A DNA stretch of 64,000 bases from Escherichia coli (GCF_003334765.1 NZ_QOWT01000011.1); one strand, 5' to 3'; shown: positions 56,044-61,311, numbered from the stretch's first letter. Translations and numbers: made by a program. Notes: generated by a model not told the origin, from the letters alone.

Positions 56044-56760
56044 TCACAAGTAGACTACGCTTATCACAGCTTTCCCATCAAGTTCGATTTTTTCTGAACC
56101 GCCTAAATCATTCGCGATAGATGCGCTCACCTGAAGCGGTATAATGGCGTTCGTTACAGGAGTTGGGGTTGTTTCACCTGGTTTTACAAAGGTGTAATAA
56201 TAGCTTTGATCGACTGCAAGCGGATAAGCGGTGAGCGTTTGCCATGCTCTTTTTTGCCCTGTTATGACGGCATCTGCACCTGCTATTGATACAGCTAACG
56301 TCTGGCTACCATTGCTGGCACTAATGTTGTTGCTATCAATTAACACGGCATAACTACCGATATTTTTATTATCTTTTGTTTTCCCTAAGCCGAATAAGCG
56401 CGTTGTCTGGCTAATATAACCTCCGCCATTTAAGGTATATTTTACACCACTCTGACCCCCACTATCTTTTCCGGTGGTCATACTATCCATTCGTGTATCA
56501 CGAGCGGTAATCGCAATGCCGGTAGCGGATTCGCAAGTTATAGTCATATTAATATTACGTGTTCCAATCTGTGTGTAGTGCTGCGTTGAAAGTCTATTGA
56601 CTGAATGACTACCGAAGTTAACAACTCCGCCGTTGCTTAGTATTGGAGTACAAGCTGCAGCTTCCAGAGTCACCTTAACGTCAATTGATACTCTATCAGC
56701 GGCTTGCGCTGACATGGCAAAAAAGGCACTTCCGGCAATCAGTAATTTTACATTGTTCAT
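56044..56760 (-). CDS. yhcF: Secreted DUF1120 / fimbrial-like protein (GltF paralog)
   Basis: 238 aa ORF with signal peptide MNNVKLLIAGSAFFAMSAQA; C-terminus ...KIELDGKAVISVVYL resembles GltF ...TIKLDGNVTISVQYL. Confidence 0.85.
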   Translation of the reverse strand: MNNVKLLIAGSAFFAMSAQAADRVSIDVKVTLEAAACTPILSNGGVVNFGSHSVNRLSTQHYTQIGTRNINMTITCESATGIAITARDTRMDSMTTGKDSGGQSGVKYTLNGGGYISQTTRLFGLGKTKDNKNIGSYAVLIDSNNISASNGSQTLAVSIAGADAVITGQKRAWQTLTAYPLAVDQSYYYTFVKPGETTPTPVTNAIIPLQVSASIANDLGGSEKIELDGKAVISVVYL

Positions 56761-57308
56761 TTTGCCTCCACCAGGACCGTCAGATTGCCTGTAATATCTG
56801 TCATGTCGGTTAGTTCCCCTTCATCCTTAAAAGCTGGAGCCATTGTCAGTGTGAGGCTAACGCTTTTACCGCTATCAATTACCACTTCTTGACCATTTTG
56901 CATAAACACCAGCCAATTATTGGGGGAAGTACTAATTGATGCTGTTCCTGTGCTGCCCGGATTGTCATTTTTGCCACTGGCTAACGCCAGGTCGAGATTG
57001 TTACTACCTGAAAATGCATCGCTGGCGATCAGATTTAATGAACCATTCGGGCCAAATCCAAATCCGTTGTTGGAAATATTAGCGGTATTCAACTGAACAC
57101 GAATATGAGCGTCCTGATCGCATTGCATTACCAGCGTGATTGTTCTGTCTGCTAATTGTGTTGTTTTACCCCGGTCAACTTGGCGCATGGCAGCACTTCG
57201 TTTGCCATAGTCGATATTTTGTATGCTACTGGAGATATTACACTCTGCCTGAGCGGCCATGGCGAAGTTCAGCAGCAGGCATCCTGTTATTATCCGTTTC
57301 ATTGGCAC
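56757..57308 (-). CDS. yhcE: Secreted fimbrial-like protein, intact reading frame
   Basis: 183 aa ORF with signal peptide MPMKRIITGCLLLNFAMAAQA; overlaps the yhcD stop and yhcF start. Confidence 0.75.
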   Translation of the reverse strand: MPMKRIITGCLLLNFAMAAQAECNISSSIQNIDYGKRSAAMRQVDRGKTTQLADRTITLVMQCDQDAHIRVQLNTANISNNGFGFGPNGSLNLIASDAFSGSNNLDLALASGKNDNPGSTGTASISTSPNNWLVFMQNGQEVVIDSGKSVSLTLTMAPAFKDEGELTDMTDITGNLTVLVEAK

Positions 57309-60375: not shown

Positions 60376-60546
60376 TTAAATTAAAACTCCTGTAATAATG
60401 ATAAATAACGCAGAAACATATTGTTAATATATGTTATGCACTGTTTGCGATGAGATTGATTAAGACAGACCATGTCATAGGGCATAATCTGTCCGAGTTA
60501 TAGCTAACTGGTTAATGCGTAAAAATAAAAACTGTATTACAAGTTC

Positions 60547-61311
60547 TTATAAATACTGAACGCTGATAGTGACGTTACCATCCAGTTTGATCGTTTCATC
60601 AGAACCAAGAATAGTATTGTCATTTACCGCAGCATCAATCAGTAACGGGAAGGTGACCGCTGTAATGGCAACAGGTGTCAGTTCCCCTGTTTTTGCAACA
60701 GAATAACCGCGCTCGATTGCTGAGCAACTTGTCAGCGAGCAGAATGCGCCATTAGATGAGGCTTTCCATGTGGGGGTCGCTGCTGACCAGTGGTCAGTTT
60801 GAATCAGGTCGACAGGAATTTCACCTGTATCGTCCGCCGCGTGAATCCCACCATTAGACCTGTCAATACCAATGGATGCAGCGCCAATTTTTTGTCCATT
60901 AGGCGCAGAACCTAAACCAAAGGCGTTTTTCGTTCCCTTCATATCTACGAGAGTATCATAAGCTTTTTCAATATAGGATGTGTCGTTTAACGCTACAATG
61001 GTCGACTGACGGTTATCCTTGGAGGTTACAGCAATTAGCGTTGGTGCTGTGCAGGTTATATTTAATGTGCTGTTTTTGCGGCCCAGTTGAACCAGTTTAT
61101 TACTTTTACCGGTCGGATTCAGCGCACTGTTATGATGTTTCCCATAGTCAACAATGCCGCCGCCCGTAACAACTGGGGTACATGCACCAGGGGTATACTC
61201 GCCGATGATAGTTAATTCTGTATCAGTTGAATCTGTTGCCATGGCACTGAATGCTGCAACAGAAAGTGCTGCACAAATAGCAGCTGTTGTGAGGTTCTTT
61301 TTGAAAAACAT
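60547..61311 (-). CDS. gltF: Periplasmic DUF1120 protein GltF
   Basis: 254 aa ORF with signal peptide MFFKKNLTTAAICAALSVAAFSAMA; paralogous to yhcF. Confidence 0.88.
   Translation of the reverse strand: MFFKKNLTTAAICAALSVAAFSAMATDSTDTELTIIGEYTPGACTPVVTGGGIVDYGKHHNSALNPTGKSNKLVQLGRKNSTLNITCTAPTLIAVTSKDNRQSTIVALNDTSYIEKAYDTLVDMKGTKNAFGLGSAPNGQKIGAASIGIDRSNGGIHAADDTGEIPVDLIQTDHWSAATPTWKASSNGAFCSLTSCSAIERGYSVAKTGELTPVAITAVTFPLLIDAAVNDNTILGSDETIKLDGNVTISVQYL

Follow-up and report, generated by a model that had tools for sequence, protein, structure and literature searches.

Whether gltF belongs with glutamate synthase or with the chaperone–usher genes beyond it is the question raised by the gltF–yhcADEF locus, which we analysed in a stretch of Escherichia coli DNA of 64 000 nucleotides (GCF_003334765.1, NZ_QOWT01000011.1; the whole stretch is referred to here as the window). 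A first-pass annotation of this sequence had placed gltF functionally in a fimbrial-like cluster rather than with glutamate synthase, and our results support that placement. In our view, gltF–yhcADEF is very likely a β-class chaperone–usher (CU) fimbrial operon which is intact in this genome, with a subunit order and mechanism as proposed below and with an adjacency to gltD that is positional.

The β-class identity was already known, and the idea, although right, is not new. Del Canto et al. (2017; PMC5216030), citing Nuccio & Bäumler (2007) and Korea et al. (2010), list gltF–yhcADEF as a β-class CU locus in which GltF and YhcF are putative subunits, YhcA is the chaperone and YhcD is the usher, and the yhc locus is counted among the 12 CU operons of K-12 (PMC8174762). 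As RefSeq also labels GltF and YhcF as DUF1120 proteins, the finding as first stated carries little weight. Restating it is useful nonetheless, since the label of a 'gltBDF operon' of unknown function persisted in 2021 (PMC8403718). What we add beyond the literature consulted is YhcE as a remote DUF1120-type pilin without a donor strand; its role was called 'unclear' by Del Canto et al. (PMC5216030). Combined with fusions of YhcE and DUF1120 domains in Pseudomonas, a tip position for YhcE would give a testable assembly order for the uncharacterised β class, and would contradict the published suggestion, as quoted in PMC5216030, that β fimbriae have no tip subunits.

Organization of the locus

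Positions 54–64 kb of the window correspond to the sspB–nan–yhc–glt region of E. coli read on the reverse strand. The plus strand carries nanA, nanT, nanE, nanK and nanQ (yhcH), and the minus strand carries yhcG, yhcF, yhcE, yhcD, yhcA, gltF and gltD. The listing of open reading frames (ORFs) contains five intact minus-strand ORFs in the order gltF–yhcA–yhcD–yhcE–yhcF, at the coordinates given in the first-pass annotation. The genes and spacers are as follows.

60547–61311, minus strand: gltF, 254 residues; pilin-like subunit of DUF1120 and candidate major subunit, encoded by the operon's first gene.
59701–60375, minus strand: yhcA, periplasmic PapD-like chaperone (Pfam PapD_N, E = 1.1e-23; NCBIfam PRK09918, 319.7 bits, cutoff 183).
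57299–59698, minus strand: yhcD, outer-membrane usher (NCBIfam PRK15304, 1273 bits, cutoff 723, full length).
56757–57308, minus strand: yhcE, subunit with a pilin fold but no donor strand at its N-terminus; proposed as tip or initiator, ORF uninterrupted.
56044–56760, minus strand: yhcF, 238 residues; second DUF1120 subunit, proposed adaptor donating a strand to YhcE.
60376–60546, no strand: gltF–yhcA intergenic region, AT-rich, 30.4% GC, 171 bp.
61312–61870, no strand: gltD–gltF intergenic region, AT-rich, 32.2% GC, 559 bp; probable promoter region of the operon's own.
54732–55859, minus strand: yhcG, with DUF1016_N (E = 1.3e-36) and a PD-(D/E)XK nuclease domain (Pfam YhcG_C, E = 1.6e-56).

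The DNA of the window is 100% identical to that of several phylogroup-A-type genomes, and Del Canto et al. found the locus only in phylogroup A (PMC5216030). K-12 matches the window DNA apart from an IS5 within yhcE, and the K-12 locus is regarded as cryptic because it is disrupted by an insertion sequence (PMC5216030).

The PapD-like chaperone gene yhcA is adjacent to the outer-membrane usher gene yhcD. The closest solved relatives of YhcA are Caf1M, DraB, CupB2 and PapD, and the YhcD orthologue in one of the loci compared (L047) has the PapC_N, Usher and PapC_C domains. The assignment of the usher to the β clade is taken from the literature (PMC5216030), with only the NCBIfam subfamily match coming from our own data. 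As listed, yhcD opens at a TTG codon and the alignment to the family model begins at residue 7; the true start is probably the methionine near 59680. Homologues of yhcE begin at MKR, which is equivalent to approximately position 57302 in the window.

The gene yhcD begins 2 nt past the end of yhcA (59698–59701), yhcE and yhcF overlap by 4 nt (56757–56760) and yhcD and yhcE overlap by 10 nt as listed (57299–57308). These tight junctions suggest translational coupling of the chaperone, the usher and the two distal subunits. Unlike the tightly packed yhcADEF, gltF is separated from yhcA by the 171-bp AT-rich spacer, in which an IS5 insertion has been described in evolved K-12 (PMC8403718). Promoter-like sites with 10 of 12 matches are found on the minus strand in this spacer (60427–60398) and, as a weak site, approximately 50 nt upstream of the gltF ATG (61390–61363); overall, promoter-like sites are no more numerous here than expected at random.

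GltF and YhcF

GltF and YhcF align over their full length (BLASTP: 30% identity and 50% positives over 249 columns, E = 6e-26), and both belong to Pfam DUF1120 (PF06551), with E values of 1.8e-45 and 2.3e-47, respectively. The first-pass annotation had described them as proteins of 254 and 238 residues with signal peptides and conserved C-termini. The ORFs were confirmed, and the conserved C-termini are present, in the form of the ...LDGxAxIxxxYL ending that is invariant in DUF1120 proteins; the similarity goes beyond this motif. A signal-peptide pattern (K/R, a hydrophobic stretch and AxA) can be read at the N-terminus of each of GltF, YhcF and YhcE.

In the donor-strand exchange of chaperone–usher systems, the donor strand is the segment that precedes the first cysteine. 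In DUF1120 proteins, the first cysteine is preceded by 14–17 residues of alternating hydrophobicity that follow the signal-peptide cleavage site, for example ADRVSIDVKVTLEAAAC, the mature N-terminus of YhcF, which is similar to the linker joining the two domains of the Pseudomonas fusions described below. These segments of GltF and YhcF are unstructured in the AlphaFold2 (AF2) monomers, a layout that would fit a donor strand. Searches of the Protein Data Bank (PDB) by sequence with the DUF1120 and YhcE profiles returned no true relatives. As no solved structure was detectable in this way for either subunit family, alignments were built, structures were predicted and folds were compared. The predicted structures are those of secreted subunits with an incomplete immunoglobulin-like pilin fold; for GltF, the predicted local distance difference test (pLDDT) score is 86 and residues 1–40 are disordered.

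YhcE as a remote DUF1120 relative

Among the three candidate secreted subunits named in the first-pass annotation, pairwise BLASTP joins GltF and YhcF as reported above but leaves YhcE apart, its matches to GltF and YhcF not being significant (E = 0.23 and 0.017, respectively). Against the Pfam DUF1120 hidden Markov model (HMM) YhcE scores E = 0.12 and so falls outside the family as modelled. A profile search returned approximately 100 YhcE relatives. When the YhcE family, represented by an alignment of 56 sequences, was compared with the DUF1120 family using hhalign, the two matched with 98.3% probability (E = 1.6e-14) across the whole mature domain (YhcE residues 22–181 against GltF residues 43–252). 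A shallow comparison of nine and 13 sequences had given a probability of only 59%, and the link became clear after the deep search with the 56-sequence alignment. Only one of these 56 sequences passes Pfam DUF1120; the profile match is therefore not circular and YhcE represents an unmodelled sister family.

The predicted structure of YhcE has a pLDDT of 92, and its best structural match is the pilin domain of FimH. A cysteine pair is invariant in both the YhcE and the DUF1120 families. In mature YhcE and its close relatives from enterobacteria, a single residue precedes the first cysteine (AQA|EC), and the C-terminal YL is missing. Since the protein starts at this cysteine, without a donor segment, the only position open to it in a fibre would be the distal tip, and on the grounds of sequence layout and analogy we consider YhcE to be the likely tip subunit.

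Clusters in other species

A genome scan with a 13-sequence DUF1120 alignment, using one genome per species and HMM annotation, gave 44 DUF1120 loci. In 33 of the 44 a chaperone–usher pair adjoins the DUF1120 genes, with between one and 12 DUF1120 paralogues around the pair, and in all 33 of these loci from other species the usher is directly followed by a YhcE-family ORF. The five-part architecture is kept across distant genera.

The post-usher gene encodes a longer protein, of approximately 380–450 residues or more, in 16 of the 33 loci, all of them from Pseudomonas. Proteins of this kind have, in order, a signal peptide, a YhcE-like domain opening at its cysteine, 17 linker residues patterned like a donor strand (for example ELSLTATLIPVAC) and a complete DUF1120 domain with YL at its C-terminal end. 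The loci are listed here.

L016, L020, L023, L026–L028, L030–L032, L035–L037, L039, L041, L043, L044: Pseudomonas loci with a fused YhcE–DUF1120 post-usher protein.

The fusion ties YhcE to YhcF-like subunits and is laid out like a two-domain tip adhesin. We also note that a single chaperone–usher pair can have as many as 12 DUF1120 paralogues in the Pseudomonas clusters.

In Enterobacter (L012, L013 and L021) and Pseudenterobacter (L002) a β-class cluster adjoins gltD but is convergent with it. The order in Enterobacter is sspB–[DUF1120–chaperone–usher–YhcE-like]–gltD, with no nan operon and with the GltF-like gene at the far end, and in E. cloacae the cluster lies directly after sspB. As β-class clusters are found beside gltD in several genera, and in E. 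cloacae without nan, the sspB–gltD interval is a variable slot in the Enterobacteriaceae.

Proposed assembly and points against it

In the mechanism that we propose, the subunits would be exported by Sec, captured by YhcA and polymerized at YhcD through donor-strand exchange. YhcE, being unable to donate a strand, would be incorporated first and become the distal subunit. The N-terminal strand of YhcF would complete YhcE, making YhcF an adaptor, and GltF, the product of the first gene, would form the shaft. The operon has an AT-rich upstream region of its own.

Several points weigh against this interpretation. A RegulonDB-style 'gltBDF operon' would imply some read-through from gltD, and in our promoter and terminator scan sites were not in excess over shuffled sequence. 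The order of YhcE (tip), YhcF (adaptor) and GltF (shaft) is one that we infer from sequence layout and analogy. YhcE does not have the ...YL C-terminus of DUF1120 proteins, and it may dock to the chaperone in a different way. In most clusters from Enterobacteriaceae no DUF1120 gene follows the YhcE-like gene, so an adaptor role such as that proposed for YhcF is not general. No fibre has been reported for any β-class system in the literature consulted, and deletion of yhc in one enterotoxigenic E. coli (ETEC) strain left adherence to Caco-2 cells unchanged (PMC5216030). The β-class chaperones resemble non-classical ones and are without the Arg8/Lys112-type anchoring residues of the classical type 1 and P systems (Pakharukova et al., 2015; PMC4654587), and assembly may follow a non-classical mode. 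In the literature consulted we found no report of de-repression for an intact allele of the yhc operon.

Distribution and chromosomal context

Of 5426 complete E. coli genomes, 1120 (about 21%) have at least 80% of the cluster region and 3418 have at least 80% of the segment 54400–56050, which contains yhcG. Four states of the nanQ–gltD interval are seen across Escherichia (L001, L046 and L047–L050): empty with one hybrid copy of a 25-nt palindrome (described below), yhcG only, yhcG with the cluster, and the cluster with a decayed yhcG. The gene yhcG is outside the fimbrial operon but within the variable sspB–gltD interval. The first-pass annotation had suggested comparison with genomes lacking the cluster; of these, sequence type 131 (ST131) and O145 strains keep gltBD without gltF. 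In ST131 (L001, 11973–12041) nanQ is 67 bp from gltD, a 7.1-kb block is missing and one palindrome lies exactly there. In O145 (L046, 4460–4644) the order is nanQ–yhcG–gltD, and in the alignment approximately 55 bp of unrelated sequence stand where the fimbrial block would be.

55989–61866, no strand: fimbrial block as an insertion or deletion when compared with E. coli that has yhcG but no cluster, such as O145; matches stop at approximately 55988.

A sister Escherichia lineage (L048, 10001–15247) has the same five genes in the same place, with the same order and overlaps and with all ORFs intact. Its proteins are 61% (GltF), 67% (YhcD), 78% (YhcA and YhcE) and 86% (YhcF) identical to those of the window, compared with 95–99% for the flanking GltD, NanE, NanK and NanQ, and its spacer equivalent to the gltD–gltF intergenic region has 30% GC. 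The divergence of this cluster resembles that of antigenically diversifying surface loci.

The first-pass annotation had called the intergenic regions strikingly AT-rich compared with gltD and the nan genes, and this is borne out, as both (30.4 and 32.2% GC) fall below the 1st percentile of windows of equal size outside the block. The cluster as a whole (56044–61311) has 44.3% GC compared with 51.1% in positions 1–54672, which is below the minimum of all 5268-bp windows outside the block. GC at third codon positions is 0.35–0.44 in the five cluster genes, 0.64 in gltD and 0.50–0.61 in the nan genes. In MG1655, published chromatin immunoprecipitation data put a PhoB site of yhcA within a region bound by H-NS (PMC10294691 Table 1, with reference to Kahramanoglou 2011), and the level of yhcA RNA is reported as very low (PMC10294691).

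The further claim is that of a horizontally acquired island. Low GC and variable presence, with the four locus states across Escherichia, speak for it. On the other hand, no integrase or transposase ORF was found in 54673–61870, where tRNA genes were not scanned for, and the sole flanking repeat of this block is the 25-nt palindrome. Moreover, because the five genes occupy the same place in the sister lineage, the block predates E. coli at this locus. It is best described as a block that evolved or was exchanged as a hypervariable surface locus, with repeated loss, as judged from these sequences. The operon is part of a variable accessory block of low GC that is reported to be bound by H-NS, and it is probably silent in laboratory culture. 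Another sharp AT-rich dip (33–40% GC) occurs at 48600–49400, approximately 1 kb upstream of nanA, and probably lies in the regulatory region of the nan operon.

Alternative interpretations

The original proposal of the 1990s makes GltF a component or regulator of a glutamate synthase (gltBDF) operon with a role in nitrogen regulation. The genetic claim is reportedly that of Castano et al. in 1992, while Grassl in 1999 and Goss in 2001 are said to have found GltF to be periplasmic and without a regulatory role. That gltF comes directly after gltD, in the same orientation, agrees with this proposal, and a 2021 paper still places it in the 'gltBDF operon' (PMC8403718), but the two genes are separated by a 559-bp spacer of 32% GC with a strong hairpin, and GltF has a signal peptide and a predicted pilin fold. 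Nor is gltF tied to gltBD by descent: most E. coli genomes do not have 80% of the cluster, ST131 and O145 keep gltBD alone, the Enterobacter clusters are convergent with gltD and have their GltF-like gene farthest from it, and homologues elsewhere adjoin chaperone–usher pairs, not gltBD. A fixed arrangement with gltBD was not found among the homologous clusters, most of which are not near gltD. We therefore regard a role in glutamate synthase as extremely improbable. It is also improbable, although not to that degree, that the cluster is a decaying, silenced relic in the course of being lost from E. coli, with proteins that assemble nothing. Interruption by IS5 or IS1 in K-12 and other strains, absence from most complete genomes, the H-NS-bound region with its very low yhcA RNA (PMC10294691), and the truncated yhcF variants and lack of an adherence phenotype in ETEC (PMC5216030) would all suit a relic. 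Against this, the five ORFs are intact both in the window and in the uninterrupted full-length genome matches listed, the five-part architecture is maintained across distant genera, and the sister-lineage allele has diverged by 14–39% at the protein level with its five ORFs intact and its order and overlaps kept, a pattern indicative of long-term selection, purifying or diversifying, and not of drift. The likeness to the cryptic, H-NS-silenced CU operons of K-12 (Korea et al., 2010) extends to low GC, poor expression and an H-NS-bound yhcA (PMC10294691); the window allele is intact, whereas the K-12 allele is disrupted by an insertion sequence (PMC5216030).

A third reading accepts the chaperone–usher pathway but would have it build a non-fimbrial surface layer or thin polyadhesin of the Caf1 or Afa/Dr kind, with no specialized tip and with YhcE as a periplasmic accessory or regulatory protein. 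Caf1M and DraB are among the closest solved chaperones, YhcE has no C-terminal YL motif, and Nuccio & Bäumler, as quoted in PMC5216030, suggested afimbrial or thin structures on the grounds that no tip adhesin was recognized. We nevertheless consider this reading rather unlikely, since a YhcE-family gene is linked to the usher in 33 of 33 clusters, the family keeps its cysteine pair and YhcE has a predicted pilin fold with the FimH pilin domain as its best structural match. In the Pseudomonas fusion, YhcE comes ahead of a genuine subunit domain and a donor-strand-like linker joins the two, as in two-domain tip adhesins. The β-class fimbrial operon, which we prefer, has the same genes in the same order as this locus in the clade of Nuccio & Bäumler (E. 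coli yhc and Salmonella Stj), and the proteins are closest to four consecutive NCBIfam models, PRK15301 to PRK15304. Type 1 fimbriae (fimAICDFGH) and P pili differ from it in that the subunits here are DUF1120 proteins, not members of Pfam Fimbrial (PF00419), and, with approximately 215 mature residues, are much larger than FimA. The proposed tip would be one small domain, or a YhcE–DUF1120 fusion in Pseudomonas, where the type 1 and P tips are lectin–pilin proteins. Cap subunits of the AfaD/DraD, SafD and AggB type are likewise without a donor strand but have no detectable sequence relationship to YhcE; their systems are of the γ3/FGL class, in which the cap gene does not as a rule directly follow the usher.

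A palindromic element in and around yhcG

The block is flanked by copies of a 25-nt palindrome, ATTYNNCAGAC-NNN-GTCTGNNRAAT, which occurs five times in the window compared with zero expected by chance.

54692–54716, no strand: copy L (ATTCTGCAGACACTGTCTGCAGAAT), separating the stop codons of the convergent genes nanQ and yhcG; marks the left end of the block that ST131 lacks.
61831–61855, no strand: copy R (ATTCGCCAGACACAGTCTGGCGAAT), just past the stop codon of gltD; marks the right end of the block that ST131 lacks.
55454–55478, 55493–55517 and 55532–55556, minus strand: three tandem in-frame copies in yhcG with a 39-nt period, encoding IRQTMSGEL, IPQTPSAEF and IWQTLSAKS.

Copy R folds at −19 to −21 kcal/mol (z of about −5.5 to −6), and the 131-nt stretch of yhcG with three copies folds at −67.6 kcal/mol (z = −10.9). 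In four copies, changes in the variable dinucleotide of the stem are matched by compensating changes in the opposite arm; in the fifth, this dinucleotide forms a G–U pair. There is no match to any Rfam family in 54000–62500. In E. coli genomes the element is restricted to this locus, and none of the 44 DUF1120 loci of other species contains the E. coli-type palindrome, the Enterobacter and Pseudenterobacter clusters beside gltD included; it is therefore tied to yhcG and Escherichia and not to the fimbrial cluster.

Deletion end-points coincide with palindromes at the ST131 junction and in the sister lineage. In the latter yhcG is decayed and its frame is broken, the last recognizable 5′ sequence entering a palindrome that is followed directly by the 3′ end of yhcG, and a degenerate right-hand copy lies after gltD. 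We considered whether the single palindrome of ST131 marks a site that was never occupied, but this is less parsimonious, as the sister lineage has both copies, the cluster and a yhcG remnant.

YhcG homologues with DUF1016 on plasmids and viral contigs (L051, L053 and L055–L080) are 30–60% identical to YhcG. Many genes of this family contain, at the corresponding codon position, one to three copies of a perfect palindrome whose stem sequence differs between genes. It is centred six or seven codons upstream of the tryptophan in the 'LSWSHY' motif, and the encoded peptide is not conserved. In L060–L062 translation runs through the E. coli-type palindrome in a different frame. In an alignment without gaps, with the Trp codon downstream as its sole anchor, 82% of cells pair compared with 59% in shuffles (none of 500 shuffles reached the observed value), nine of 13 pairs change on both sides and the covariation score is 0.62, compared with 0.20 for shuffles and 0.05–0.15 for slid controls. 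Mismatches of the G·T and A·C types are symmetric (eight and seven), so that an RNA hairpin and a DNA dyad are indistinguishable.

From these alignments, the covarying palindrome looks like an undescribed conserved nucleic-acid element, and as a lead separate from the fimbrial question it may merit a study of its own. We suggest only tentatively, and think it doubtful, that the palindrome is a functional element intrinsic to DUF1016/YhcG genes whose extragenic copies are points of block deletion or exchange and possibly YhcG substrates; if so, the fimbrial cluster would be part of a palindrome-bounded cassette. The nuclease core of YhcG is predicted to be Holliday-junction-resolvase-like (PMC1189080), but any link between the palindrome and YhcG activity is pure conjecture.

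Two plasmid-borne homologues suggest that yhcG is itself a horizontally mobile gene of the defence-island type. Among the plasmid matches listed, the closest relative of YhcG outside E. coli (61% identical) is on plasmid pACIX903 of Granulicella tundricola (L051, 386–1450), a conjugative plasmid of an acidobacterium, where it adjoins a tyrosine recombinase. Another homologue lies between hsdM and hsdS on an IncHI2 plasmid.

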